A stretch of 64,000 bases of DNA from an uncultured Clostridia bacterium. GTDB taxonomy: Bacteria > Bacillota > Clostridia > Oscillospirales > Ruminococcaceae. Position 1 is the stretch's first letter. Every line of letters starts with the position of its first letter. Under the pieces are notes generated by a model. That model made no database searches and was not told the origin of the DNA. It worked only from the letters and a program-made list of their open reading frames with translations. Location of the stretch: the NCBI GenBank assembly GCA_947625915.1, contig CANQPX010000002.1, forward strand, positions 40,303-104,302, read 5' to 3'. This document shows, in pieces, positions 4,767-57,486 of the stretch. A program made the translations under genes and the position numbers.

Positions 4767-4839
4767 AATTTGATTCTCCTAACGAAATTTTTAAGAACGG
4801 CTGTTCTTAGCTTTTATTTTGTTTGTAACCTCTCAAAAA

Positions 4840-5715
4840 ATCTAAGAGCAGAACACATAAAAATCCTGTCAATACCTCAACTCTTAACTCTCAACACTCA
4901 ACACTGCCGAGTGGCAGACAACCATAAGGGAAAGCGTGGGGTGGGTGGGGGACGGTCGGCGGGGTTCTTTAGTTTGCTTTTCTTGATTTTTTATTTTGTA
5001 TATAACCTTTTTTGCCTATTTGTGCGAGGGGCAGACAACCATAAGGGAAGGGGAAACCCGAGCGCCCCTAAGGACGCTCGCCGGGTTTCCCCGTTCCCTT
5101 AGTTTTTCTCCCCTCGCGCTCCCCACTTTCCTTCAACCCTTCCCCTTCCGCGCTCGCTATCCTAAAGTTGAAATTATAGAAGAAATATCAAAGTTCTCTT
5201 GAACATAGATCATTGAGTCAACAGGAACCCTTAGTTTTGTTTATCTTAGTAAGAGAGTTCTACTGTTAGTTTGATATTCAACAATTATAGAGTTCTAAAC
5301 AATAGGATTTCTTTTTTAAAAAATTTCTCCCGTTTAGAACGCTTTTTCTTCTTTAATTTTCATCTAATAGTAGTGCGCTCGTACTAAGATAAGTTAAACC
5401 AAAGAACCCGTAGCCAACGCAATCCCCATTCAAGAGTTCTAAAAAGCTTTTTCTATAATTTCTACTTTAGCATAGCGAGCGCGGAGAGGGATAGGGTTAG
5501 GAAAAGAGGGGCGCGGGGGGAGAAACGCAGGGAAAGGGAGAACCCGGCGAGCGCCTATGGGCGCGTTCGGGTTCGCCCTTTCCTGAAGTGTCATCCCCCC
5601 GAACGATTAGGCAAAAAGGGTTATAAGAAAAGTAAAAGATAAGAACAGAATACAAAAGAACCCCACCCCAAAAGAAAAAATGAAAAGATTTTACTAAGCT
5701 TTTGTTAAAAGCACC
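4840..5715. repeat. large nested imperfect palindrome, copy 1 (non-coding)
   Basis: Dyad symmetry is centred near 5316. An AT-rich core of ~310 bp is bounded by CCGCGCTCGCTAT (5148..5160) and ATAGCGAGCGCGG (5472..5484). GC-rich ~90-nt hairpin arms lie at 5025..5116 and 5515..5600, and the outer flanks also mirror each other. It shares long exact blocks with 24180..25070. Only repeat-derived low-complexity ORFs are present. Confidence 0.85.
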
Positions 5716-5723
5716 CCCATGCC

Positions 5724-5752
5724 TTGACATCATAACAAAAAAGCACTATAAT
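5724..5752 (+). promoter_or_regulatory. consensus sigma-A promoter
   Basis: TTGACA (5724..5729), exactly 17 nt, then TATAAT (5747..5752). Lies 35 nt upstream of the small ORF at 5787. Confidence 0.65.
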
Positions 5753-5786
5753 ATATTTATAAGCTTGGTTATAAGGAGGCGAAGCT

Positions 5787-5933
5787 ATGGGACAGACCGA
5801 CAGCCAATTCAAAGCTTTTATCCGCTTTATCCTTGATGCTCTTAAAGAAGCGGATAATGAGACAGATGAAGCAAAACATAAAGCAAAAATGGCAAAAATT
5901 ATTGAAAATTTGCAGAAAATACTCGAAGATTAA
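5787..5933 (+). CDS. small hypothetical protein (48 aa, helical, charged)
   Basis: ATG at 5787 preceded by AAGGAGG (5773..5779). Translation is MGQTDSQFKAFIRFILDALKEADNETDEAKHKAKMAKIIENLQKILED. Framed by a consensus promoter and a terminator. It is too short for the ORF track. Confidence 0.55.
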   Translation: MGQTDSQFKAFIRFILDALKEADNETDEAKHKAKMAKIIENLQKILED

Positions 5934-5950
5934 TGAAAATTACCATTTAA

Positions 5951-5984
5951 GGTGTAAAGCTCAGGCTTTGCACCTTTTATTTTC
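5951..5984. terminator. rho-independent terminator (probably bidirectional)
   Basis: Hairpin GGTGTAAAGC-TCAG-GCTTTGCACC followed by TTTTATTTT. Lies between the convergent small ORF and the 5983..6669 gene. Confidence 0.65.
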
Positions 5985-6669
5985 AGTTCCTCGAAACAAG
6001 AAACTTTATCGCCCTCTCAATGCTGTCCTTGGAATTGCCCCAGTCCGCATCTTTGCCTGTGTTGCGGTAATCATACATTGAGCAGTAATGGGAAACGTCT
6101 TTGTATAAAAGCGCGATCTGCTTTTCGGTAAGCTCTCCCGCAAGTTTTCCGAAGCTTTCCAGATCGTCTTTTTTCAGATACGCGGGCGCAAGCGACTGCA
6201 AAAGATCATAATGCGGCAGACAGATGTATTCCTGCTCCGCAAGCAGTTCGCGGAATTCTTTCTGCTGCGAATACATCTCGAAAAACGTCCGCATGAGCCG
6301 TTCCATGCCCCAGTCAACTTTCTCGCATACAAAACAAGTGCCGTTTATCGCAGAAAGTTTTTCTTTCCTTGCGTTTTTCGGCTCAAAAAGCTTTTTCCGC
6401 GAAAATAACTGCTTGTCAACTTCTTCAAGATGAGTTTGCAGCATGAGCGCAAGGGAAAGACGGTTCTTCTGCTTTAACATTTGCTGAAAATGCGTGTGGC
6501 AAAATCCCGCGCGGTTCGTTTCGATGCGGACATCGGGTTCCATCATCGCCGCGCCCATGATATACTCCACCGTACGCTGCTCCAGCATATCACGCATACG
6601 GCATATGGGGCAGCCTTCCTTTGGTTCAAGTATCTCGCTTATCGGGATAGTCAGAATACTTTCGCGCAT
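5983..6669 (-). CDS. Cys-rich conserved hypothetical protein (DUF6062-like)
   Basis: 228-aa ORF with paired Cys/His motifs: CPICR...FCHTH and CFVCE...CLPH. Resembles a clostridial family of unknown function. The family name is from memory and is not verified. Confidence 0.5.
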   Translation of the reverse strand: MRESILTIPISEILEPKEGCPICRMRDMLEQRTVEYIMGAAMMEPDVRIETNRAGFCHTHFQQMLKQKNRLSLALMLQTHLEEVDKQLFSRKKLFEPKNARKEKLSAINGTCFVCEKVDWGMERLMRTFFEMYSQQKEFRELLAEQEYICLPHYDLLQSLAPAYLKKDDLESFGKLAGELTEKQIALLYKDVSHYCSMYDYRNTGKDADWGNSKDSIERAIKFLVSRN

Positions 6670-6682
6670 AAAATAACTCCTT

Positions 6683-7486
6683 TCATGTTCCCGTTCTCAT
6701 ATAATGGAAAAGATACTGTTGGGCGATGCCTGCATACGGCAGGACAAATTCCGGAAAACCGTCGGGATAGAACTGCTCCATAACACGTTTCATCCATACG
6801 TCCATGGGAACGCAGTCTATGCGGTACATTCCGTAAAGCATGGCACAGTCAGCAACTTTCGGACCGACGCCTTTTATCGTCATAAGTATCTTCCGTATCT
6901 CCTCGGTGGGGAAATTTTTTATATCATCAAGAACTATCTCCCGATCGTTCAGTTTTCGGACGCAATCGGCTATGTATTTTGCACGGAAACCCGCTCTCAG
7001 CGGCGCAAGATCATCAGGTGAAATGCCGTTCATATCTTCAAATTTCGGGAAACCGCCGTACATTTCGCAAAGCCGCCCGATAATTCCCTTTATGCGCGGG
7101 ATATTGTTGTTCTGGGAAATTATAAAGGAGCATAACGCTTCCCAGCTGTCCTGACGGAGTATCCTTATCCCGCCCGCATAGGCGCAGGCTTTTGAAAGTG
7201 CAGGATCTTCGGAAAAAATGCGTTTTATCTCGGAATAGTCCGTTTCAAGATCAAAATACGGCAGCCAGACATTTACAAATGTACTTTCGTCAGTATCGCG
7301 GAAACGGAAATAGTCCTTTTCCGCCGAGACAGTGAGCGGAGTATTCAGCATAAAGCCGCGGTAAACACATTCCGAGCCGTTTCCCTGACGTTCCCAGCGG
7401 AAAGCCTGACCGCAGTCAAGCGTTTCGTCAAGGTCAAAGTCGGAAGTTTTCAGAAGTATATCCTCTCCCTGCTTTATATATTCCAT
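6683..7486 (-). CDS. ogg: 8-oxoguanine DNA glycosylase / HhH-GPD N-glycosylase-DNA lyase
   Basis: 267-aa ORF. N-terminal OGG-type motif LDCGQAFRW, then an HhH-GPD region (IKGVGPKVADC). Confidence 0.7.
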   Translation of the reverse strand: MEYIKQGEDILLKTSDFDLDETLDCGQAFRWERQGNGSECVYRGFMLNTPLTVSAEKDYFRFRDTDESTFVNVWLPYFDLETDYSEIKRIFSEDPALSKACAYAGGIRILRQDSWEALCSFIISQNNNIPRIKGIIGRLCEMYGGFPKFEDMNGISPDDLAPLRAGFRAKYIADCVRKLNDREIVLDDIKNFPTEEIRKILMTIKGVGPKVADCAMLYGMYRIDCVPMDVWMKRVMEQFYPDGFPEFVLPYAGIAQQYLFHYMRTGT

Positions 7487-7660
7487 TCAAAGACTCCTTT
7501 TAAAAAAAACTATACTTATTATACCATTTGCACCGTCAAAAGTCAACATCACCGTTCTCTGCTTTGACATTGTTGTCCCCATTGTCTGCCGCAGCGGAAT
7601 AATCGGACTTGCCCCCGAATATAGTTTTAAAAAGCAGTCCATATTACGGGAGGAAAATTT

Positions 7661-10333
7661 ATGCTGGAAATTCTGGAAAGACCTTATACTTCAAGCTCAA
7701 AAGGACTTTCCTCGGCTGACGCTGCGGAAAAGCTCATACAATACGGAGAAAATTCTCTTGCAAAGGAAAAGAAAGCAAGACCTCTGAAAATTTTTCTCGG
7801 TCAGTTCCGTGATGTAATGATAATGATACTTCTTGCTGCAACGGTCATATCCTTTTGCCTCGGAGAAGTATACGACGCGGTAACGATCGTAATTATCGTA
7901 CTGCTGAACGCTATACTCGGTTTTATTCAGGAATACCGCACCGAAAAAACTCTTATCGCTCTGCGGAACATGACCGCTCCTTCCGCAAAATGCTGGCGTG
8001 ACGGCGCGCTGACCACCGTTCCCGCAGCGGAACTTGTTCCGGGGGATATCATACGCCTTGAAGCAGGCGACAAAGTTCCCGCCGACTGTATCATCATTTC
8101 CTGCAAAGGACTTCTTGCGGAGGAAAGTATCCTCACAGGCGAATCTGCCGCCGTTCCCAAGACCGAAGGCGACCCTTCCGACACGGACAATTCAATCGGG
8201 AAAGCGGACGCGGTCTACAGCGGAACTGTCATCGTCAAAGGCTCTGCCGAAGCAAAAGTCATCGCTACCGGACTCAATGCGCAAATGGGCAGGATCTCGG
8301 GTATGCTTAACGATATCGATGACGAAATGACCCCTCTCCAGAAACGTCTTGCCGAACTCGGAAAGATAATTGCTCTTATATGTCTCGGAGTCTGCGTCAT
8401 AGTAAGCGGCGCGGGGATACTCCGCGGCGAGCCTGTTTTTGATATGCTCATGACAGGCATCACAATTGCTATAGCAGCGATACCGGAGGGGCTTCCCGCG
8501 ACCGTGACTATCGCACTTGCACTTGCAACGGGAAGAATGCTGAAAAAGAATGCTCTCGTACATAAACTCCATTCTGTGGAAACTTTAGGCTGCGCGTCAG
8601 TTATATGCACCGACAAGACAGGAACTGTAACCGAAAATAAAATGACCGTCACAAACGCTTTTTGCGGCGGAAAGGAATTTTCCTTTTCGGGTAACGGCTA
8701 CCGTATGGCAGGAGAGATAACTCTTGACGGCTCGAGAGTAAATCCCGCTTCCGAACCCGCGTTAAAGGAAATGCTCATCTGCGGGACGCTTTGTACCGGA
8801 TCGTCAATTTCCTCCGACAAAAAAATTACCGTCCGAGACAGAGGAAAACTCGATCTTAAAGGAGAATGGAAAGTTACAGGCGATCCTACCGAACTTGCTA
8901 TCCTCATTGCCGCCGCAAAAGGCGGCATAACTGCGGAAACTCTTTCCGCAGAGCATAAAAAGACCGATGAGATACCCTTTGACAGCAATTCCCGCTGCAT
9001 GACGGTGATATGTTCCGAAAACGGCGGCAGAACGGCTTACACAAAAGGCGCGCCCGATGTTGTGATAAAGCGCTGCGGTTTTTATATGACCGACAGCGGA
9101 GCAGTTCCCATGACCGCAAGAAAGCGGCGGGAAATTTACGATATCCACGAAAAAATGACGGAAAACGCTTTGCGCGTTCTTGCATTTTGCAAAAAAGACG
9201 TTTCGGGGAATTCCGATCCCGAAAGCGGAATGATATTTCTCGGCATAATGGGAATGTCCGATCCTCCCCGAGCCGAAGCAAAACAAGCCGTAAGACTTTG
9301 CCGCAGCGCACATATCCGCACCGTTATGATAACCGGCGATCATAAGAACACCGCTGCCGCCGTTGCCAAGCAGGCGGGGATAATGCGTGAAGGCGATCTT
9401 GTTTTCACAGGTACGGAACTTGACCGTATGTCCGATACGGAACTTGACGGTATCATCGGCAAAACGGCTGTTTTTGCAAGAGTAAGTCCCGCCGACAAGC
9501 TGCGCATAGTCCGTGCTTTCAAGCGCAAAGGCGAGATAGTTACAATGACCGGAGACGGCGTGAACGACGCTCCCGCGGTAAAAGAAGCGAGCATCGGCGT
9601 TGCAATGGGACTTACCGGAACGGACGTCACAAAGCAGGCTGCGGACGTTGTGCTGCTTGACGATAATTTTGCAACGCTTGTAGGCGCAGTCGAACAGGGG
9701 CGCGGCATTTATGCAAACATAAGAAAATTTGTCCGTTATCTTTTAAGCTGCAACATCGGCGAAGTCCTCACAATGTTCCTCGGGATAGTTTTAGGTATGC
9801 CCATGGCTCTGCTGCCGACACAGATACTTCTTGTCAACCTTGTAACGGACGGACTTCCCGCGATCGCTCTGGGGGTCGAACCGCCCGACCGTGAGAACAT
9901 GAAAAAGCCGCCGAGAAGATCCGATGAAAGTTTTTTCTCGGGCGGACTAATGCAGAAAATAATTATCCGCGGTATCCTCATAGGTATCTGCACCTTGGGA
10001 AGTTTTGCGGTCACGGAAATTCTCAGCGGAAGTATTGCCGCGGCACGCACGGCAGCGCTTTTCACCCTTGTGACGTCACAGCTTTTTCATGTTTTCGAGT
10101 GCAAATCCGAGACGAAAAACATTTTTACCGTTCCGTACATGAACAACAAGAAGCTCATCGGAGCGGTGCTGATATCTCTTGCGGCAGTTCTCGGAGCAAT
10201 ATATTTCCCGCCTTTGCAGGTGATATTCGGAACGGTCCCGCTTACGGGAAAGCAGCTTCTCACGGCGTTGGGCATGGCATTTTCCGCACCGCTTTTGCAG
10301 GCGCTTACGCCGACGAAAAGAGAAGAAAATTAA
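7661..10333 (+). CDS. cation-translocating P-type ATPase (Ca2+-ATPase type, YloB/SERCA-like)
   Basis: 890-aa ORF with TGES, the phosphorylation motif CTDKTGTVTENKM, TGDHKNTA, MTGDGVNDAP and about 10 TM segments. Confidence 0.9.
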   Translation: MLEILERPYTSSSKGLSSADAAEKLIQYGENSLAKEKKARPLKIFLGQFRDVMIMILLAATVISFCLGEVYDAVTIVIIVLLNAILGFIQEYRTEKTLIALRNMTAPSAKCWRDGALTTVPAAELVPGDIIRLEAGDKVPADCIIISCKGLLAEESILTGESAAVPKTEGDPSDTDNSIGKADAVYSGTVIVKGSAEAKVIATGLNAQMGRISGMLNDIDDEMTPLQKRLAELGKIIALICLGVCVIVSGAGILRGEPVFDMLMTGITIAIAAIPEGLPATVTIALALATGRMLKKNALVHKLHSVETLGCASVICTDKTGTVTENKMTVTNAFCGGKEFSFSGNGYRMAGEITLDGSRVNPASEPALKEMLICGTLCTGSSISSDKKITVRDRGKLDLKGEWKVTGDPTELAILIAAAKGGITAETLSAEHKKTDEIPFDSNSRCMTVICSENGGRTAYTKGAPDVVIKRCGFYMTDSGAVPMTARKRREIYDIHEKMTENALRVLAFCKKDVSGNSDPESGMIFLGIMGMSDPPRAEAKQAVRLCRSAHIRTVMITGDHKNTAAAVAKQAGIMREGDLVFTGTELDRMSDTELDGIIGKTAVFARVSPADKLRIVRAFKRKGEIVTMTGDGVNDAPAVKEASIGVAMGLTGTDVTKQAADVVLLDDNFATLVGAVEQGRGIYANIRKFVRYLLSCNIGEVLTMFLGIVLGMPMALLPTQILLVNLVTDGLPAIALGVEPPDRENMKKPPRRSDESFFSGGLMQKIIIRGILIGICTLGSFAVTEILSGSIAAARTAALFTLVTSQLFHVFECKSETKNIFTVPYMNNKKLIGAVLISLAAVLGAIYFPPLQVIFGTVPLTGKQLLTALGMAFSAPLLQALTPTKREEN

Positions 10334-10340
10334 CAAGCTG

Positions 10341-10678
10341 ACGAAAAATAAAAACAGGCGCGGACAAACTAAAAAACAAAAAACAAAACTTTGCCCGAAA
10401 AGCCGGTCCGGCGCAGCCGCGCTGGCGGTTTCCAAAGGCAGAGCCTTTGGTCGCCATCCGCAGATGGCGAAATCCCCTAATGCCTTTAGGAGCTCCGCAA
10501 GGGGTGAATTTACGCCGTAGGCGTAAAGAGGGGGCTGCCCTGCGATAGAGGGCGCCCCCTTGGCATTAAAGGCTATTATAATTTATGCCTTGCAAAACAG
10601 CCCGGTGAGCTGTTTTGCAATAAAGAGCAATTGGTTTTTCTAAAAAATAATTCGTTGTTTGACAAAAACTGTATTATT
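10341..10678 (+). repeat. multi-hairpin intergenic element, copy 1
   Basis: Begins AGGCGCGGACAAACTAAAAAAC 8 nt after the ATPase stop. Contains the conserved hairpin series and the block AATCCCCTAATGCCTTTAGGAGCTCCGCA. Ends with the hairpin TTGCAAAACAGC-CCGGTGA-GCTGTTTTGCAA and a T-rich tail. Strand is given for the GGCGCGGAC-first orientation. Confidence 0.85.
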
Positions 10679-10780
10679 TTTATAAATACTTTTTTTGGCA
10701 GTATGTTAAAAGATCCTCTCCCGGAATGTCCGAAAGGGGATCTTGTCATAAAAATTATATTTTGTTCCGCAATTTTTATA

Positions 10781-11659
10781 TCAGACTTTGCCGCCTTCTA
10801 CAACAAGATTTTCTTTGTCTACCGCGTCACCGTAAACAGATGCAAGAGTCTCATCATAGTCGTTGTGGAAGAAATTTTCGCCCGCAAGTGCCGTTATCTC
10901 ATCGTTTATCCATTTGAGAAGAGTTTCATTCCCCTTTGAAACGGCAGGAGCAATAGTATCAATGCTGCCCAGTGATTCTATTCCCACGGTAAATCCCGGG
11001 TTCTGCATAGCCCATGCAAGAACTTCCGTATTGTCTGTGGAGAACGCATCTCCGCGTCCGTCCTGAAGTGCGGAATATGCTTCGTTGTATTCGTCGAATT
11101 TTACAAGTTCAACATCGGGATAATTTTCCGTAAAGTATGTCTCCGCCGTTGTTCCCTTTACAACTATGAGCTTCTTGCCCGCAAGATCCGCTTCGGAAGT
11201 TATTACCGCGCTGTCGGGAGAAACAACTCCCAGCGCAACCTTCATATACGGAAGTGCAAAATCCACCTTTTCCGCGCGTTCGTCCGTTACCGTAAAGTTT
11301 GCAAGGATAATATCCACCTTTCCTGTTTCAAGGAATTCCACACGGCTCGCCGCCTCAACGGGGACAAGTTCCAGTTCCGTTCCCAGATCCTCTGCTATGC
11401 GCTTTGCAAAATAGATGTCATAACCCTGATATTCACCGTTGTTGTCAATGTAGCCGAAGGGGTTCTTGTCGGAAAAAACGCCTATTTTGACCGTTCCCGA
11501 TGATTTTATATCGTCAACTGTCCTATAGATCGCATTCCCGCTGCCCGAAGCTTCTCCGTCTGCGGAAGTATCGCCGCTTCCGTTCCCGCCGCAGGCTGAA
11601 AGGCTGAACGCCAGTGCCGCAGCGGCGATCGCAGAAATTATCTTTTTGATGTTTTTCAT
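10781..11659 (-). CDS. amino-acid ABC transporter substrate-binding lipoprotein
   Basis: 292-aa ORF. Lipoprotein signal (AFSLSACGG) and a family-3 solute-binding fold pattern. Adjacent to ABC permease and ATPase genes. Confidence 0.85.
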   Translation of the reverse strand: MKNIKKIISAIAAAALAFSLSACGGNGSGDTSADGEASGSGNAIYRTVDDIKSSGTVKIGVFSDKNPFGYIDNNGEYQGYDIYFAKRIAEDLGTELELVPVEAASRVEFLETGKVDIILANFTVTDERAEKVDFALPYMKVALGVVSPDSAVITSEADLAGKKLIVVKGTTAETYFTENYPDVELVKFDEYNEAYSALQDGRGDAFSTDNTEVLAWAMQNPGFTVGIESLGSIDTIAPAVSKGNETLLKWINDEITALAGENFFHNDYDETLASVYGDAVDKENLVVEGGKV

Positions 11660-11916: not shown

Positions 11917-12190
11917 ATAATATAGTTCGTTGTCAAACAACTCACCGGGTTGTTTGACAAGGCTCAAATTATAATAACCGTTAATGCCAAGGGGAACGCT
12001 CTCTCTTGCAGAGCGTTCCCCTCTTTACGCCTGCGGCGTAAATTCACCCCCTGCGGAGCTCCTAAAGGCATTAGGGGCTTTCGCCATCTGCGGATGGCGA
12101 CAAGGGGTTTCACCCCTTGACCCCACCAGCGCGGCTGCGCCGGACCAGCTTTTCAATTTTGCGCTACGCACAAAATTGTTAAAAATAGAA
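11917..12190 (-). repeat. multi-hairpin intergenic element, copy 2 (variant ends)
   Basis: Reverse-complement orientation relative to copy 1. It shares hairpins P3-P8 and the AATCCCC...CCGCA block. The GGCGCGGAC end is replaced by the hairpin CAATTTTG.GCG/CGCAAAATTG, and the terminal hairpin uses the TTGTCAAACAAC arm. Confidence 0.8.
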
Positions 12191-24179: not shown

Positions 24180-25070
24180 GTGGAGGTAGGCTGAGCCTGC
24201 CGACAGTGTGGAGAGTTGAGATACTGACGGGGTTTTGAGGTGTTCTGTTCTTATATTTAGTTTTGTGAAAATTTCTTAGTTTTATGTTTCGGGGGACAGA
24301 ACCTTCCGGGAAGGGCGACCCCGAGAAATTAACAGGGACGCTCGCACGGGTTCTCCCTTCCCCTGCGGTTCTGTCCCCCGAGCCCCCTACTCCCCAACCC
24401 TATCCCTCTCCACGCTTGCTACCGAAAAGGTTGATATTATAGAAAAATTTTCTTCGTACTCTATAACATATATTATTGAGTCAATAGGAACCGTCAGTTT
24501 GGTTTATCTTGGTACGAGAGTTCTACTGTTAGTTTGATATTCAACAATTATAGAGTTCTACACGGGAAAGGACTCCACAAAAAGAAAATCTATTGTTTAG
24601 AACGCTTATTCTTCTTTAATTTTCATCTAATAGTAGTGCGCTCGTACTAAGATAAGCAAAACCAAAGAACCCGTAGCCATCGCTTTCCACGTTCAAGAGT
24701 TCTAAAAAACCTTTTCTATATTTTCAACTTTGAGCATAGCGAGCGCGGAAGGGGTTAGGTTGAAGGAAAGTGGGGAGCGCGAGGGGAGAAAAACTAAGGG
24801 AAGGGGAAAACCGTGCGAGCGCCCATAGGGGCGGTCGGGTTTCCCCGTCCCTTATGGTTGTCTTCCCCTCGCACGTTTTGGCAAAATAAAAATTTTACTA
24901 TAGCTTTTTAAGAAAAGCAATCTCCGCCCCTTTTACATTTGCCCCGAAAACACAAAAAGAGGTCATAAGCAAAATAAAGAATAAGAAAAGCAAACTAAAG
25001 AACCCGCAAAAGTTTTACACCGAAAGAAAAACTAAAAAGATTTTTACTAAGCTTTTGTTAAAAAGCAATT
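24180..25070. repeat. large nested imperfect palindrome, copy 2 (non-coding)
   Basis: Dyad symmetry is centred near 24579. The core is bounded by CCACGCTTGCTAC (24410..24422) and ATAGCGAGCGCGG (24736..24748). Hairpin arms lie at 24291..24379 and 24780..24871. It has exact 45-nt and 48-nt direct matches to the copy 1 core and an exact 43-nt inverted match to the copy 1 left arm. Confidence 0.85.
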
Positions 25071-31318: not shown

Positions 31319-32932
31319 TCAGCGGTTAAGGATCTCACGAATCGTATCTCCATCTATTTCAATCTTGCCGTTCGGACCCGCTGTAACAACATACGGCTCT
31401 ACGGATCCGCCGTTCCCGCCGCCCTGACTGCTGCTGCCGCCGCTGCCGCCGGAACTTCCGCCGTTCTGTCCCATGCTGTCTGCACCGCCTGCGCTGTTTC
31501 CGCCGCCGTTGTTCCCGCCTGCGTCTCCGCCGCCATTTCCGCCGTTTCCTGACGAGCCGCCGGAATTGTTTCCGCCAACGCTGTTTCCGCTGCCGCTGCC
31601 GCCGCCATTTCCGCCGCCCTGACTGCTGCTGCCGCCGTTGCCGCCGGAACTTCCGCCGTCCTGACCTTCGCTGTCCCAATTTTCATCGTCCCAACCTTCA
31701 TCGTCCCAACCTTCGTCATCCCAATTTTCGTAGTCCCATTCGTCCTCGTCCCAATCTTCGCCGTCGTCGGGATATCCGTTATTAAAACTGTCTGCAATAT
31801 CAAGGCTGTATACTTCTTCGGGTCTGTTTATTCTTGAAGCATACGGGACAACTCCGTTATAGTTGCCTATCAGGAGCATGAAGTAAAATCCCGCGCAGTA
31901 AAGCGAAAGTGCAGACATTGCTGCGATCCCGTATTTTTTCCCGAGAGCGCGGTCCTTCTTGAAAAACTTATCTTCAAAAAATTCTTTTACCGCTTGTACA
32001 ACGTCGGGAGCCATGAAAATTATCGGCGCTATACAAACTATTATCGCAAATCTTGAAAGCACCGCATGGCGCATACCTGTCGCTTCAAACACGACCATGT
32101 ACATCGCGCAGTTTATATAGACCTTATTCTTCGGGTTTATCTCCATCAGCCGTTCCCTGAAGATGAAGCACAGCGCGAACGCCAGCCCGAACATTATCGT
32201 GAACTTCGGAGACAGCCCTACGATCACTTCTCTGTTTGTAGAGATGTCATACACATTATACATATAGAAGGTATCCGCCGCCCACGTTATGAATGTCCTT
32301 GAGAAAATGCAGAATATGACCGTCAGACCTGCAATAACGCCGAGGTATATATAACCGGGCTTTATCTGTAAAAGCCAGAACAGCGGTATCATTATCAGAG
32401 CCGACCAGTGGAAAAGCGACGCGGCAAGTATCATTACGAAAAATCTTGCGGAAAACTTTCTGTCCGCATATTTCAGCGCATATGTTACTATAAGCGCGGC
32501 AATGACCTGCCTTATGAAACACAGCGAATTAAAGAACAGACCCATGCAGAGGTATGCGGTAACGCTTATCCACGGGCATGAGGAATTCTTATATATCAGG
32601 AAAAACACAGCCGAATATATTATCAGCGATGTATAGATGAATACTGTATAATAACTTTCAAATTCGATCCCCAGCACATACAGCGGCATAAGGAAACCTT
32701 TTTCCATTTTAAGCTGCGATATCTCGTCCGGGTACATGAACGCGATGTTGTAATATGTACCGCCGTAGAGGCTGAAATCATAACCGACCTGATATCTTAC
32801 CGCGGATATGAACATAAAGACCGCAGCCGCAGCGCAGCAGTAGATAAGCCTGCCCGACCTTCCGCACTTTTCGCTGCAAAGCGGTATACCCACAAGGACG
32901 GTACCTATAAGTAAAAAGATATAAACTCCCAT
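31319..32932 (-). CDS. EpsG-family polysaccharide polymerase-like membrane protein with a long low-complexity tail
   Basis: 537-aa ORF. The N-terminal ~390 aa are polytopic with the EpsG-like RYQVGYDFSLY motif. The C-terminal ~150 aa are acidic Trp repeats plus G/S/N repeats. Confidence 0.65.
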   Translation of the reverse strand: MGVYIFLLIGTVLVGIPLCSEKCGRSGRLIYCCAAAAVFMFISAVRYQVGYDFSLYGGTYYNIAFMYPDEISQLKMEKGFLMPLYVLGIEFESYYTVFIYTSLIIYSAVFFLIYKNSSCPWISVTAYLCMGLFFNSLCFIRQVIAALIVTYALKYADRKFSARFFVMILAASLFHWSALIMIPLFWLLQIKPGYIYLGVIAGLTVIFCIFSRTFITWAADTFYMYNVYDISTNREVIVGLSPKFTIMFGLAFALCFIFRERLMEINPKNKVYINCAMYMVVFEATGMRHAVLSRFAIIVCIAPIIFMAPDVVQAVKEFFEDKFFKKDRALGKKYGIAAMSALSLYCAGFYFMLLIGNYNGVVPYASRINRPEEVYSLDIADSFNNGYPDDGEDWDEDEWDYENWDDEGWDDEGWDDENWDSEGQDGGSSGGNGGSSSQGGGNGGGSGSGNSVGGNNSGGSSGNGGNGGGDAGGNNGGGNSAGGADSMGQNGGSSGGSGGSSSQGGGNGGSVEPYVVTAGPNGKIEIDGDTIREILNR

Positions 32933-33340: not shown

Positions 33341-35644
33341 ATGGAATTAAAAGAAAGATCAAGCATTTTAAAAGAAAAGACGGACAAAAGCAGATCTGCG
33401 GGAAAATTCCCCCTTCCTGCGGAAATTTTCCTTTCCGCACTGCTGGGATATTTTGCCGCAGGAACGGATCTCGGTGGCAGCGGCGCGCCTTTTTGCGCGG
33501 CAGCGGCAGCAGTACTTCCGCCCATAGGCGGTATCGCCGCGTTTGCGGGAACAATGTCCGCGCTGCTGCTGAAAAAAACGATAAATTCTTTCGTCACGGA
33601 AATAATAGCAATGCCTGCGATAGTGACAGCAAAAATCCTGCTTACTTACATATCGGGCAAAAAACATTCTCCCGTCATGTCAGCCGTGCTTTCAGGCGCG
33701 GCATATCTTATATGCGGCATAATAACGGTCATTTCCTTCGGCTCGGGATATGCGCCGATACCCGCAGTTATTTTCCGCAGCATGATATCCGCCGCAGCCG
33801 CTTTCCTGACGGAAAAAACATTTTCCGCCGCAAAGAACGGGACGGTATTTTCCCACGGGAACAGGATCTCGCTTTCGGCGGTATTCGTAATGGCGCTTTG
33901 TATGCTTTGCGGCATAAATATCGGCTCCATGGATCTCGGGCGCACCGCGGGAGCGTTCATTTCACTTGCGGCGGCATACAGATACGGCAGCGGTGCGGCA
34001 GGAACGGCTGCCGCGCTGACGGCTTTCGCGTCGGGAATAGCCTCGAGAACTCTTCTGCCGCCGTCGCCGATAATGATATGTTCGGCAATGGCGGCGGGGA
34101 TCCCCGACAAAGGCGGGAAACTTTCCCATGCGCTGGTATTTGTGGGCTTCGGGCTTTCGGGAACGCTCATGTACGGCATACCTTCCGATGCGGCGGAACT
34201 TCTTGCCGACATGACGGCGGCAGCGGTGATATTCTGCGTACTGCCGGAGAAAATATACCGGAAAGCCTTTGCGGAAGAACTTAAACACCATGCCCCTGTT
34301 TCCGTACCGATAACACTTTTCGGTGAAAAACTCAGATTTGCTGCCGCCGCAGTCTCGGAAATAAAGGAAAGCTACGAAAAAGCGGCGGAAGTCCTTGCGG
34401 AAAAAGAACGTCCCGCCGACATTTCCCGTGACGTATGCGAAAAAGTATGCTCCCGCTGCAAAAGCAGCGCATTCTGCGGCGAAAATGCGGAACATCGCAT
34501 CGAGAACTATTTCCGACCAATGGAGACCGTAACGGACAAAAACGGCATACTTACCGAAAAAGAACTCCATCATGCCCTCGGTCACTGTCCGCACAAACAG
34601 GCGCTGACAGAAGCTTTCAACTCCGCATACGGCAAAATGCTCATGGAAAAACGTTTGGCGGATATGTCCGCATCAATGCGGGAAATAACTTCCGAACATC
34701 TTGAAGGAACGGAAAAAATGCTTTCTTTCCTTGGCGGCAGAACGGATATCTTCCCTTTCTGCGACGAAAGAGTTTCCGTCCGCATAAACGGGATAATTTC
34801 CGACGCGGGCGCAAAAGATCCCCATTCCGCATTATTCTCCGACCGTGCGGGAAGAGTATACATAGAATGTTTTTATGAGGGAATGTTAAATGTGAGCCAT
34901 GAGGAACTTACGGAAATGTTTTCCCGTGCTGCCGACAGGGAACTTGCCATGCCCGCAGCCGCCGTTTTCGGCGGCATAACGCGGCTATGTTTCCATGAGC
35001 AGGAATGTTTTTCCGCCGAAATAGGCTCCGCCGCCGCAAACGGCAGGGAAGAAACAGGCGGCGACTTCGGAACTGTCTTTCATGACGGTCTCGGCAGCGT
35101 TAGCATAATACTTTCCGACGGAATGGGCAGCGGTGCCCGCGCTGCGGTGGAAAGCTGCATGACCGTATCGGTGATCGCAAGAATGATAAAAGCGGGGCTC
35201 GGCGCAGAAGCAGCCGTAAAGATCACCAATCTCCTGCTTCTGACAAAATCTCCCGAAGAATGTTTTTCTACCATAGATCTGCTGACCATAGATCTTTTTA
35301 CGGGCAGCGCGGAACTCATCAAACTCGGCGCGGCGCAAAGCTTTGTCAAGAGCTGCGGAACGGTCAAGACCGTTGAGAGCCGCACCGCTCCCGTGGGAAT
35401 GATAAGTCCCGCCGAGATAGACCGCAGAACGTTCCGTCTTTCGGACGGGGACGAAGTGGTGATGATAACGGACGGCATCTGCGAAGAATGTTTCCCGAGG
35501 ATAAGGGAACTTATGCTCAGCATGGGAGTCACAGCCCGCGACTGCGCCGAAAGGATAATTTCCGCCGCAGAGGACGGAAAAGAAAACAATATTTTCATGC
35601 AGGACGACAAGACCGTTTACGCCGTCAAACTGCACAAAATATGA
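33341..35644 (+). CDS. spoIIE: stage II sporulation protein E (PP2C phosphatase)
   Basis: 767-aa ORF with about 10 N-terminal TM segments, a central regulatory region and a C-terminal PP2C domain (GGDFGTV...LSDGMGSG...ITDGI). Confidence 0.8.
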   Translation: MELKERSSILKEKTDKSRSAGKFPLPAEIFLSALLGYFAAGTDLGGSGAPFCAAAAAVLPPIGGIAAFAGTMSALLLKKTINSFVTEIIAMPAIVTAKILLTYISGKKHSPVMSAVLSGAAYLICGIITVISFGSGYAPIPAVIFRSMISAAAAFLTEKTFSAAKNGTVFSHGNRISLSAVFVMALCMLCGINIGSMDLGRTAGAFISLAAAYRYGSGAAGTAAALTAFASGIASRTLLPPSPIMICSAMAAGIPDKGGKLSHALVFVGFGLSGTLMYGIPSDAAELLADMTAAAVIFCVLPEKIYRKAFAEELKHHAPVSVPITLFGEKLRFAAAAVSEIKESYEKAAEVLAEKERPADISRDVCEKVCSRCKSSAFCGENAEHRIENYFRPMETVTDKNGILTEKELHHALGHCPHKQALTEAFNSAYGKMLMEKRLADMSASMREITSEHLEGTEKMLSFLGGRTDIFPFCDERVSVRINGIISDAGAKDPHSALFSDRAGRVYIECFYEGMLNVSHEELTEMFSRAADRELAMPAAAVFGGITRLCFHEQECFSAEIGSAAANGREETGGDFGTVFHDGLGSVSIILSDGMGSGARAAVESCMTVSVIARMIKAGLGAEAAVKITNLLLLTKSPEECFSTIDLLTIDLFTGSAELIKLGAAQSFVKSCGTVKTVESRTAPVGMISPAEIDRRTFRLSDGDEVVMITDGICEECFPRIRELMLSMGVTARDCAERIISAAEDGKENNIFMQDDKTVYAVKLHKI

Positions 35645-37965: not shown

Positions 37966-39171
37966 ATGTATACGACTAAAAAAGAATGTGTTGCAATGCT
38001 GCTTGCAGGCGGACAGGGAAGCCGTCTGTATGCCCTGACCCATGATATGGCTAAACCTGCCGTTCCTTACGGCGGAAAATACCGTATCATCGACTTCCCG
38101 CTTTCAAACTGCATAAACTCCGGTATCGATACGGTCGGCGTACTTACACAGTACCAGCCGCTGGTATTGAACGACTACATCGGAAACGGTCAACCGTGGG
38201 ATCTGGATAAACAGTACGGCGGCGCACACTGCCTCCCTCCGTACCAGACGGCTCTCGGTGCCGAATGGTACAAAGGTACCGCAAACGCTATCTATCAGAA
38301 TATCGCTTTCGTGGATCGCTACGATCCCGAATATGTCATAATCCTCTCCGGCGACCATATCTATAAAATGGATTACAACAAAATGCTCGACTTCCATAAG
38401 GAAAAGAAAGCTGACGCTACTATCGCCGTTCTGGACGTTCCTAAGGAAGAAGCTTCCCGCTTCGGCATCATGACCGCCGATGAGAACGGCTTTATTACCG
38501 AATTCGAGGAAAAACCCAAGAACCCTAAGTCTACGCTTGCTTCAATGGGTATATACATCTTCACATGGAAGAAACTGAAACAGTACCTCATCGAAAACGA
38601 AAACGACGAGACCGCTTCCAAAGACTTCGGTAAGAATATTATCCCCGATATGCTCAATAATAAGGAAGTAATGGTGGCTTACCCGTTCGAGGGCTACTGG
38701 AAAGACGTCGGAACTCTCGATTCCCTCTGGGAAGCAAATATGGATCTTCTCAATCCGAATATCCCTATCGACCTGTACGATCCCGAGTGGAAAATGTATT
38801 CCAGAAATCCTATCATGCCTCCTCAGTATATCGGTCCCGATGCAGTTGTTGAAAATTCAATGATAACAGACGGCTGCGTTATCAACGGAACTATAGATTT
38901 CTCCGTAATTTTTGAGGGCGTTACCATCGAAGCCGGCGCAACAGTCACCGACTCAATAATCATGCCGGGTTCCGTTATCAAATCGGGCGCGATAGTTGAA
39001 TATGCTATCGTAGGCGAGAACTGCGTTGTAAATTCAGGCGTACAGATAGGCGCACGCCCCGAAACAGTCGAGAACAGAGACGACTGGGGAATTGCCGTTG
39101 TAGGACACAACATCACAATATCCGAAAATGCAAAGGTTCTTCCGAAGCAGATCATTTCGGAAAATATGTAA
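37966..39171 (+). CDS. glgC: glucose-1-phosphate adenylyltransferase
   Basis: 401-aa ORF with [12 protein letters not shown], the GKYRIIDF motif and a C-terminal left-handed beta-helix. Confidence 0.9.
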
Positions 39172-41878: not shown

Positions 41879-42203
41879 ATAATATAGTTGTTTGACATCG
41901 AACTATTTTTGAACAAATTGCTCTTTATTGCAAAACAGCTCACCGGGCTGTTTTGCAAGGCTTAAATGGTCTTAGCCGTTAATGCCAAGGGGAACGCTCT
42001 CTCTTGCAGAGCGTTCCCCTCTTGCCGCCCAAAGGGCGGCAATTCACCCCTTTGCAGAGGCGCCTTCGTAAAGGGGATTTCGCGCTCTGCGGAGCGCGAC
42101 GAGGGCTTCGCCCCTCGACCCCACCAGCGCGGCTGCGCTGGACCAGCTTTTCGGGCAAGGTTTTGTTTTTCGTTTTTTAGTTTGTCCGCGCCTGTTTTTT
42201 AAC
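41879..42203 (-). repeat. multi-hairpin intergenic element, copy 3
   Basis: Reverse-complement orientation. The GGCGCGGAC end (42185..42203 region) faces the stop of the minus-strand EAL gene. The full hairpin series is present. Confidence 0.85.
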
Positions 42204-47739: not shown

Positions 47740-48030
47740 AAAAGCCTTAAAGCAGGCGCGGACAAACTAAAAAACGAAAAACAAAACCTTGCCCGAAAAG
47801 CTGGTCCAGCGCAGCCGCGCTGGTGGGGTCGAGGGGCGAAGCCCTCGTCGCCGTCCGCAGACGGCGAAATCCCCTAATGCCTTTAGGAGCTCCGCAGGGG
47901 GTGAATTGCTGTCGCAGACAGCAAGAGGGGGAAGCCCTGCGATAGAGGGCTTCCCCCTTGGCATTAACGGCTTTTTCAAATTTTGTCTTGTCAAACAACC
48001 CGGTGAGTTGTTTGACAACAAAATATTTTT
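47740..48030 (+). repeat. multi-hairpin intergenic element, copy 4
   Basis: GGCGCGGACAAACTAAAAAACG starts at 47755. The hairpin series is conserved. The terminal hairpin uses the TTGTCAAACAAC/GTTGTTTGACAA arms, and the distal T-rich tail module is absent. Confidence 0.85.
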
Positions 48031-53480: not shown

Positions 53481-53886
53481 TGAAAAACTGAAAAATAGGC
53501 GCGGACAAACTAAAAAACGAAAAACAAAACCTTGCCCGAAAAGCTGGTCCAGCGCAGCCGCGCTGGTGGGGTCTAAGGGAAAAACGAATGCTTCGCATTC
53601 GTCTAAACCCCTTGTCGTCGAAACGAACGCAGTTCGTTTTTCGCAGTACGACGAAATTCCCCTAATGCCTTTAGGAGCTCCGCAGGGGGTGAATTTGCGC
53701 CGCAGGCGTAAAGAGGGGGAAGCCTCTGCAAAAACCAAAACTTCGTTTGGTTGAGGGCTTCCCCCTTGGCATTAACGGTTATTATAATTTATGCCTTGCA
53801 AAACAGCCCGGTGAGCTGTTTTGCAATAAAGAGCAATTTGTTTTTCTAAAAAATGATCTGTTGTTTGACAACAAATTATATTATGC
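53481..53886 (+). repeat. multi-hairpin intergenic element, copy 5 (expanded)
   Basis: Full-length copy with two of the hairpin modules enlarged by nested hairpins (53570..53650). Flanked by an identical 23-bp direct repeat. Confidence 0.85.
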
Positions 53887-57142: not shown

Positions 57143-57486
57143 TCGAAAAACTAAAAATAGGCGCGGACAAACTAAATAGCGAAAAACAAAACTTCGCCCG
57201 AAAAGCTGATCCAGCGCAGCCGCGCTGGTGGGGTCAAGGGGTGAAACCCCTTGTCGTTGTCCGCAGACAACGAAATCCCCTTTACGAAGGCGCCTCTGCA
57301 AAGGAGTGAATTGCCGCCCCTTTGGGCGGCAAGAGGGGAACGCTCTGCAAGAGAGAGCGTTCCCCTTGGCATCAACGGTTATTATAATTTAAACCTTGCC
57401 AAACAGCCCGGTGAGCTGTTTGGCAATATAGAGCAATTTGTTTTTCTAAAAATTGATCCGTTATTTGTCAACGAACTATACTATTA
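57143..57486 (+). repeat. multi-hairpin intergenic element, copy 6
   Basis: Starts 10 nt after the GH3 stop with GAAAAACTAAAAATAGGCGCGGACAAAC. The full hairpin series and the terminal TTGCCAAACAGC-CCGGTGA-GCTGTTTGGCAA hairpin are present. Confidence 0.85.

Follow-up and report, generated by a model that had tools for sequence, protein, structure and literature searches.

A nested, flip/flop-like palindromic repeat in the intergenic DNA of an uncultured gut Clostridia bacterium

Results

Architecture of the palindromic element

We analysed a window of 64,000 nt from contig CANQPX010000002.1 (assembly GCA_947625915.1; positions 40,303-104,302, forward strand), in which a large imperfect palindrome (copy 1, 4958-5667) and a related one (copy 2, 24226-25005) occupy intergenic DNA, with a fragmentary third copy (4795-4932) to the left of copy 1. 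The window comes from an ordinary chromosomal region of an uncultured gut Oscillospirales bacterium (Clostridia) and holds about 50 genes, among them type IV pilus genes, OGG, P-type ATPase, DarA, holB, SpoIIE, glycogen genes, SecDF, HisRS, FtsZ, FtsQ and MurA. Both full copies lie upstream of genes. The neighbours of copy 1 are an amidohydrolase gene and a 48-aa open reading frame (ORF), and those of copy 2 are genes for a decarboxylase and TraX; these functions are unrelated.

Copy 1 is centred near 5316 and is ~710 bp long. When the region was compared with its own reverse complement, 71.7% identity was found over 725 nt (blastn, E 2e-89), and a repeat search detected nested arm pairs of 52-95 nt, 71-77% complementary, centred near 5316. 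On both strands a 716-nt stretch is predicted to fold into one long hairpin, with -353 kcal/mol on the plus strand and -349 on the minus strand, whereas shuffled 716-nt controls reach about -190 kcal/mol, corresponding to z scores of -25 and -28 for the two strands. The self-complementarity is thus far beyond chance, in agreement with a sequence-only reading that had placed a palindrome about position ~5316.

From the outside to the centre, each arm consists of an AT-rich terminal module starting from GGGTTCTTTRGTTT, a GC-rich hairpin unit of ~100 nt, a pyrimidine tract, a perfect 13-bp repeat, an AT-rich outer-middle part, the inner palindrome (5231-5402), a perfect 9-bp repeat and a 31-bp loop. 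The modules were delimited in a four-arm alignment (A1), in which both arms of both copies are each read from the outside to the centre. The left terminal module (B, 4958-5021, plus strand) carries the terminal motif as GGGTTCTTTAGTTT at 4962-4975, and the right one (B', 5605-5667, minus strand) carries it inverted at 5650-5663 with 2 mismatches; in copy 2 the motif is present at the right end (24992-25005, minus strand) and degenerate at the left end. Five sites in the two copies, together with a site with one mismatch at 38512-38525, make six in the window against 1.1 expected. The left-arm GC-rich hairpin (5022-5119) has predicted energies of -65.5 kcal/mol (plus) and -69.1 kcal/mol (minus) with z scores of -8.9 and -7.4, and the right-arm one (5510-5604) has -63.4 and -58.7 kcal/mol. 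With energies of -58 to -69 kcal/mol and z scores of -5 to -9, the earlier description of two GC-rich segments that are each a hairpin is borne out.

Further inward, the 13-bp perfect inverted repeat CCGCGCTCGCTAT (5148-5160, plus strand) pairs with ATAGCGAGCGCGG (5472-5484, plus strand), the match extending to 33/35 positions with the flanks, and encloses a middle segment (5161-5471). The 9-bp perfect inverted repeat GTTCTAAAC (5292-5300, plus strand) and its partner GTTTAGAAC (5332-5340, plus strand) enclose the central loop of 31 bp (5301-5331). All of these repeats had been quoted in the sequence-only reading and were found in place. Between the two levels lies the inner palindrome of 172 bp, whose arms (5231-5284 and 5349-5402) are 72% complementary. 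It is bordered on each side by ~20 nt of unique non-palindromic sequence and flanked by the direct hexamer GAACCC on the left (5225-5230, plus strand) and on the right (5404-5409, plus strand), and its right end carries the terminal motif as GGGTTCTTTGGTTT (5396-5409, minus strand). Owing to this nested, GAACCC-flanked arrangement with its own terminal motif, copy 1 looks like one foldback inserted in the loop of another.

To the right of the palindrome is an asymmetric extension (5668-5715, plus strand; family D15), which is common to both copies with 77% identity and ends in motif E, a small hairpin GCTTTT-GTT-AAAAGC (5688-5715) that occurs twice in the window against 0 expected. The right-end motif that had been suggested to be common to the two copies is indeed present, as ACTAAGCTTTTGTTAAAAGC at 5693-5712 and 25046-25065, with 0 chance matches expected. 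The direct repeat superimposed on the palindrome proved to be 25 nt long and 96% identical (4908-4932 and 5025-5049). In addition, GAGTTCTA is found three times per copy, on the plus strand only, at 5255, 5290 and 5434 and at 24518, 24553 and 24697, with spacings of 35 and 144 nt. Six occurrences compare with 1.6 expected in the window, and none lies outside the two copies; GAGTTCTA could be a protein-binding site. Directly left of copy 1, at 4933-4960, there is a G-run tract, GCGTGGGGTGGGTGGGGGACGGTCGGCGGGG, which is a potential G-quadruplex sequence and has a partial mirror, CCCCACCCC, at 5660-5668.

Copy 2 (24226-25005) is 79.5% identical to copy 1 over 557 nt in the same orientation and 73.3% identical over 663 nt in the opposite orientation. 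The second copy that had been reported at 24180-25070 is therefore real, but its palindrome ends on the right at 25005 and contains an insert of ~65 nt (24887-24954) with an extra E-like motif. Its left GC hairpin (24288-24382) is divergent in sequence, with a perfect 14-bp outer stem (-58.2 and -61.1 kcal/mol), and its right GC hairpin (24776-24876) is by eye ~90% identical to the reverse complement of the left hairpin of copy 1. The left 13-bp repeat is degenerate (CCACGCTTGCTAC, 24410-24422, plus strand), its partner being ATAGCGAGCGCGG at 24736-24748 beyond the middle segment (24423-24735), and the central loop (24564-24594) lies between GTTCTACAC (24555-24563) and GTTTAGAAC (24595-24603). 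The inner palindrome of copy 2 is flanked by GAACCG and GAACCC at places equivalent to those in copy 1. The right extension (25006-25068, plus strand) contains motif E at 25040-25068, and the left end is abutted by a hairpin with a CTCAACT heptad motif (24180-24225, minus strand), an older motif that is also present in relatives without the palindrome.

The fragmentary third copy comprises a mini B/B' palindrome (4795-4866), CTCAACT heptads (4876-4905) and a duplicated hairpin start (4908-4932). Positions 4838-4884 match 24258-24212 at 83%, and 4801-4830 and 5619-5648 form an inverted pair. Similarity between the full copies varies from one module to the next, with 100% identity over stretches of 46-48 nt and ~65% in adjacent ones. 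This patchwork suggests exchange within a larger pool of copies.

Two nested inversions between the copies

In the four-arm alignment, the informative sites fall into blocks. At 5024-5146, 11 sites are exchanged, the left arm of copy 1 resembling the right arm of copy 2, against 2 sites with equal orientation and 2 compensatory sites. At 5161-5291, 30 sites have equal orientation in both copies and none is exchanged, and at 5301-5303 all 3 sites are again exchanged, as is the centre. The outer change, from exchanged to equal, therefore occurs between 5146 and 5161, and the inner change, from equal to exchanged, between 5291 and 5301, that is, inside the perfect inverted repeats at 5148-5160 and 5292-5300. 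The middle segment has the same orientation in both copies and is 92-100% identical to copy 2 in the plus orientation; the outer arms are exchanged relative to it. By eye, the central 37 bp (GTTCTA to TAGAAC) match copy 2 at 25/37 positions as the reverse complement and at 14/37 directly, the loop of copy 2 being flipped. Since both change points fall in perfect inverted repeats, the two copies represent flip/flop isomers, nested at two levels. These results show that the palindrome arms exchange with each other, and they lend support to the previous idea of a recombination hub. The arms may have been exchanged by a dedicated recombinase, by general recombination or by template switching during replication; the last of these would flip a 31-bp loop more easily, as in quasi-palindrome mutagenesis. 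When palindrome copies are aligned in genome orientation, such inversions appear as false 'compensatory' changes, which misleads covariation tests.

The sequence was compared with independent short-read metagenome contigs from other samples. L088 covers 5106-8593 at 99.97%, with 5106-5790 taking in the centre and portions of both arms, and L089 covers 5262-6793 at 100%. Other contigs reach the element from outside: L095 up to 4989, L090 up to 24351, and L003, L004 and L005 from 24792. Because independent contigs reproduce the sequence, the palindrome is not a foldback artefact. These assemblies show copy 1 in the orientation of the window, L088 for the middle and the centre and L089 for the centre only.

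Genomic distribution and strain differences

The closest public relatives share 74-76% protein identity in the decarboxylase and 75-84% in the amidohydrolase. In two of them (L098 and L099, 75% aa identity), OGG, DUF6062, the amidohydrolase and T2SSF are co-directional, and the gap between DUF6062 and the amidohydrolase is 31 nt, compared with 1214 nt in the window (4769-5982). The lineage-specific 1214 nt hold the third-copy fragment, copy 1, motif E, a promoter, the 48-aa ORF and a terminator hairpin. The earlier statement that copy 1 lies between divergent genes is thus literally true, but its plus-strand gene is the 48-aa ORF, itself in lineage-specific inserted DNA; the genes are divergent because of the insertion, and this is not an ancestral divergent promoter region. 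At the decarboxylase locus, three related lineages (L007, L091 and L092/L093) are syntenic downstream, lack the element upstream and have other upstream neighbours. The palindrome is therefore absent at orthologous sites in the related genomes compared.

The 48-aa ORF (5787-5933) encodes the helical peptide MGQTDSQFKAFIRFILDALKEADNETDEAKHKAKMAKIIENLQKILED, is antisense to the DUF6062-amidohydrolase direction and is preceded by a perfect TTGACA-17-TATAAT promoter (5724-5752) and an AAGGAGG ribosome-binding site. Gene calls for this ORF exist in 3 independent assemblies, and it has no Pfam, NCBIfam or PHROG family. We also considered an inversion of the 19 kb between the copies and rejected it, as both flanks of copy 1 are syntenic with L098. 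A 767-aa ORF (33341-35644) that would have implied such an inversion as an orthologue of the L007 ATPase is SpoIIE according to Pfam. Separately, L098 has at 7770-9281 a 503-aa gene without Pfam family between OGG and DUF6062; in the window this gene is missing, and OGG and DUF6062 adjoin directly (6669-6683).

In the strain of SRR11585415, which is 98.5-99% identical, the left flank follows the window to 4946 and then continues with 30 nt absent from the window, CGTAAATTGTCAAGTCAAGTGCAACGAAAA, in place of the region right of 4946; the contigs L094 (1-30) and L087 (last ~30 nt) stop there. The right flank of this strain ends at 5690 with a motif E variant, GCTTTTC-ATA-GAAAAGC, in which the hairpin is kept. 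The copy 1 locus therefore varies even between near-identical strains. Taken together, these comparisons show that the DNA of the element entered intergenic sites in this lineage only, and that its modules were shuffled between copies and between strains.

Searches beyond these loci were negative. The inner-core pattern had 0 matches in genome, metagenome and viral contig collections, the outer-arm gapped pattern had 0 in metagenome and viral contigs, and the motif E pattern had 0 in viral contigs. No match was obtained by blastn against plasmids and phages, and nhmmer with a four-arm profile gave no match in 1.24 Mb of related-species loci. A last contig added only 123 nt beyond the window, with no further copy, and literature searches returned nothing specific on such an element.

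Coding capacity, transcription signals and selection on pairing

The absence of coding capacity, claimed in the sequence-only reading, was confirmed: the ORFs of the palindrome are short, their frames differ between the arms, they are uncalled on independent contigs and they have no protein homologues. Gene callers placed no ORF in the palindrome on L088, an arm pseudo-protein had no candidate homologue among 5.8 billion proteins, and the 78-aa right-arm ORF is not on record. Inward ORFs were rejected as coding sequences, since the pyrimidine-rich composition of the strand is all that keeps them open, and indels place the two arms in different frames; a 38-aa ORF across the palindrome centre was likewise rejected, as it has no ribosome-binding site.

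A scan of the window with Rfam models, including ROOL, GOLLD, OLE, raiA and HEARO, yielded 0 matches at gathering score. When thresholds were relaxed, generic microRNA-precursor hairpin models ranked best at both copies, and every match stayed far below its gathering score. No tRNA was found in the window, and scans of the two copies for sigma-70-type promoters and intrinsic terminators detected none. A consensus promoter was seen only at 5724-5752, beyond the repeat, and is directed away from the palindrome.

Arm mismatches of the G:T and A:C types are about equally frequent, 22 vs 20 in copy 1 and 17 vs 18 in copy 2, in addition to 45-56 transversions. Among the 51 quartet-informative sites of the four-arm alignment, 3 are compensatory, with both arms changed together, and the remaining 48 are arm-to-arm differences common to both copies. 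Because so few sites are compensatory, pairing between the palindrome arms is not detectably selected, and the earlier proposal that the structure is conserved could not be upheld, there being on neither strand the wobble bias that a selected giant RNA hairpin should show. The shared differences indicate that divergence of the arms predates the separation of the two copies; the inverted duplication is therefore old, and the view that it is no recent duplication holds. Some compensation is seen only in the ~100-nt GC hairpins, where a comparison of all four finds it at 5 of 33 pairs, on whichever strand is considered, a behaviour that by analogy resembles REP-like DNA repeats.

Discussion

In the best reading of our data, the element is not an RNA gene but repeat DNA, either selfish or near-neutral. 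Specifically, we consider the element to be a lineage-specific, non-coding, nested foldback/mosaic repeat of the kind of miniature inverted-repeat transposable elements (MITEs), REPIN and BIME, with flip-flop isomers, and give this reading a probability of about one half. The element has the terminal inverted repeats of a MITE. As for copy number, 2 full copies and 1 fragment lie in 64 kb, are absent at orthologous sites and differ between strains at 4946/4947, and the genome carries a second intergenic repeat family too. Nothing that we found points to a structured RNA or a gene switch. The element matches no described family, and its behaviour is that of known bacterial palindromic intergenic repeats; what is unusual is its size, its build as a palindrome of palindromes and the two-level flip/flop.

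Under this reading, a smaller foldback of 172 bp would have been inserted into the loop of a larger one. The composite may have spread via a transposase or hairpin-dependent copying encoded elsewhere in the genome, which would then probably hold more copies. The flips would result from recombination or replication template switching between the arms, and effects on neighbours, such as the split of the former DUF6062-amidohydrolase pair, would be by-products.

Several observations weigh against this reading. The 2 full copies examined both lie in the one 64-kb window, and no transposase, RAYT or recombinase is present among its ~50 genes, nor is there a Y1 transposase within the window. No direct repeat that could be a target-site duplication was seen at the outer ends by reading, the relatives being ~75% identical and offering no clean empty site. 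At 710 bp, the element exceeds the typical size of bacterial MITEs. The perfect stretches of 46-48 nt within copies that are ~80% alike could reflect purifying selection rather than gene conversion, and pairing within the GC hairpin modules is preserved by compensated changes. Finally, the position of both copies upstream of genes, with motif E beside the downstream promoter region, could be regulatory.

The closest known counterparts are whole-length palindromic MITEs such as ERIC/IRU, Correia, RUP and the Rickettsia palindromic elements. Like them, the element is non-coding, intergenic and multi-copy, has inverted termini, folds into a long hairpin, is variably present between related genomes and occurs in nested or fragmentary copies. 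Unlike them, it is ~710 bp long rather than roughly 100-400 bp, it has no target-site duplication seen at its outer ends and no known parent insertion sequence, and its copies are mosaic and only ~80% alike. With proteobacterial REP, REPIN and BIME sequences it shares alternating palindromic units with short conserved motifs, reshuffled modules and hairpins kept by compensation. It differs from them in that its hairpin units are ~100 nt rather than 20-40 nt, the assembly itself is one large palindrome and the host belongs to the Clostridia; the combination of short units and a RAYT that defines those families was not seen in the window. Spacers or loops in both orientations are also known as flip/flop isomers in the terminal repeats of adeno-associated virus (AAV), in plastid inverted repeats and in the yeast 2-micron plasmid, but here the isomers are two paralogous chromosomal copies and not forms of one replicon.

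Among the alternatives, a programmed DNA-inversion switch is slightly the most probable, although we regard it as unlikely. In such a nested inverton, a recombinase encoded elsewhere would flip the ~311-bp middle segment, and perhaps the centre, altering the expression of flanking genes. The copies differ by exactly such inversions, with switch points in perfect inverted repeats; the asymmetric inner sequence is 97-100% conserved between them; and both are upstream of genes. A segment of ~270-310 bp between such repeats is the typical geometry of gut-bacterial invertons, in which it lies between inverted repeats of ~13-35 bp, and the outer repeat of copy 1 (33/35) surrounds a segment of that length. 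The relative orientation is opposite in the two copies, as in invertons, but it is compared here between paralogous copies, and the sequence outside the repeats is also palindromic. Moreover, the invertible segment has no promoter-like site, no recombinase is encoded nearby or among the ~50 window genes, the left 13-bp repeat of copy 2 is degenerate, and the independent assemblies, L088 for the middle and centre and L089 for the centre, show no orientation of copy 1 other than that of the window. A 31-bp loop would be too short for ordinary site-specific inversion, and in any large inverted repeat the spacer can be turned round by general recombination or template switching.

A bolder variant, which we consider rather improbable, is that the element represents a new nested two-level inversion module of uncultured gut Oscillospirales, with an outer part of ~311 bp and the inner loop of 31 bp. 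A dedicated recombinase, or a mechanism that depends on a hairpin or cruciform, would flip it, and its role would be that of a heritable switch or of a structure recognised by an undescribed mobile element with hairpin ends. Were the flips to prove active and reversible, the element would amount to a compact natural DNA switch with two levels.

A comparably low probability is assigned to cis-acting architectural or regulatory DNA, cruciform-prone or protein-binding, that would insulate or tune promoters with motif E and GAGTTCTA as putative binding sites. The enrichment and strict plus-strand orientation of GAGTTCTA (six against 1.6 expected, three per copy) are consistent with this, as are the hairpin E beside the downstream promoter region in both copies, its hairpin-preserving variant in the other strain and the 100% conservation of the asymmetric inner core between the copies. 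However, relatives have no orthologous element at the same genes, the flanking genes are functionally unrelated, and gene conversion between the copies can account for the patches of identity.

More doubtful still is the idea that the element encodes a very large hairpin RNA or an ornate structured one, or gives rise to double-stranded or small RNAs, and the sequence-only reading's suggestion of a very large hairpin RNA was not borne out. The predicted folds are extremely stable, the ~100-nt GC hairpins keep their pairing with 5 compensated pairs among the four modules, and coding capacity is absent. The element resembles large ornate RNAs (ROOL, GOLLD, OLE, raiA) in its size, its lack of coding capacity, its highly structured predicted fold and its occurrence in a Firmicutes-like genome. 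In contrast to them, the element has no covariance-model match, no transcription signals and no long-range covariation, and it is strand-symmetric. There is no promoter or terminator inside the copies, both strands fold equally well without wobble bias, compensatory change between the arms is limited to 3 of 51 informative sites, mismatches affect ~25% of arm positions and include many transversions, and the element is absent from relatives. An assembly artefact, a foldback chimera or a mis-join, is effectively refuted: short-read contigs do tend to stop in or near the palindrome, but artefactual foldbacks are near-perfect palindromes whereas this one is only 72% complementary, and contigs from different samples span its centre (L088) or confirm its other parts (L089, L090, L095, L003-L005).

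If the repeat-DNA reading is true, the result is mostly cautionary and descriptive. Unusually large nested palindromic repeats in an uncultured gut Clostridia lineage would break short-read assemblies, split once-adjacent genes and differ between near-identical strains, which matters when metagenome-assembled genomes are judged for quality and when rearrangements are compared at the strain level.

Other repeats and features of the window

Other functions of large palindromes were considered for the locus and rejected. A replication origin or terminus does not fit the cumulative GC skew, which drops near-monotonically over the window with no lasting sign switch. A telomere-resolution site, retron, attC or single-strand origin does not fit the imperfect palindrome centre and the chromosomal housekeeping context, and neither a reverse transcriptase nor an integrase is nearby.

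The heptad motif CTCAACT/CTTAACT, which adjoins the left end of copy 2 and the third-copy fragment, recurs in the intergenic DNA of the clade, usually next to a small GC hairpin (GCAGGCTGAGCCTGC) or to TATTGACA. It is found in the window at 4876-4905 (plus) and 24205-24220 (minus), in L007 at 5337-5352 and 5448-5463, and in L092 at 59-74. In L094, two inverted copies (10020-10050 and 10150-10185) bracket ~110 nt of GC-rich mini-hairpins.

The second intergenic repeat family is unrelated to the palindrome. It is ~340 nt long, contains several GC hairpins including TTGCAAAACAGCCCGGTGAGCTGTTTTGCAA, and has at least 6 copies in the window that are 70-88% alike (10344-10680, 11930-12154 inverted, 41928-42152, 47742-48022, 53485-53884 and 57147-57484). 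Most are downstream of genes, and two inverted copies flank a solute-binding-protein gene (10781-11659). No Rfam match was obtained for this family. In L097 (81% aa identity), a piece of it at 12-114, upstream of the amidohydrolase, is 92% identical, which indicates that this piece is better conserved than coding DNA.

Lastly, degenerate GC-rich direct repeats (CCGCC-rich, with units of 60-74 nt) lie at 31401-31675 within a 537-aa EpsG-family ORF on the minus strand, where they probably encode a low-complexity stretch rich in Gly, Ser and Asn.

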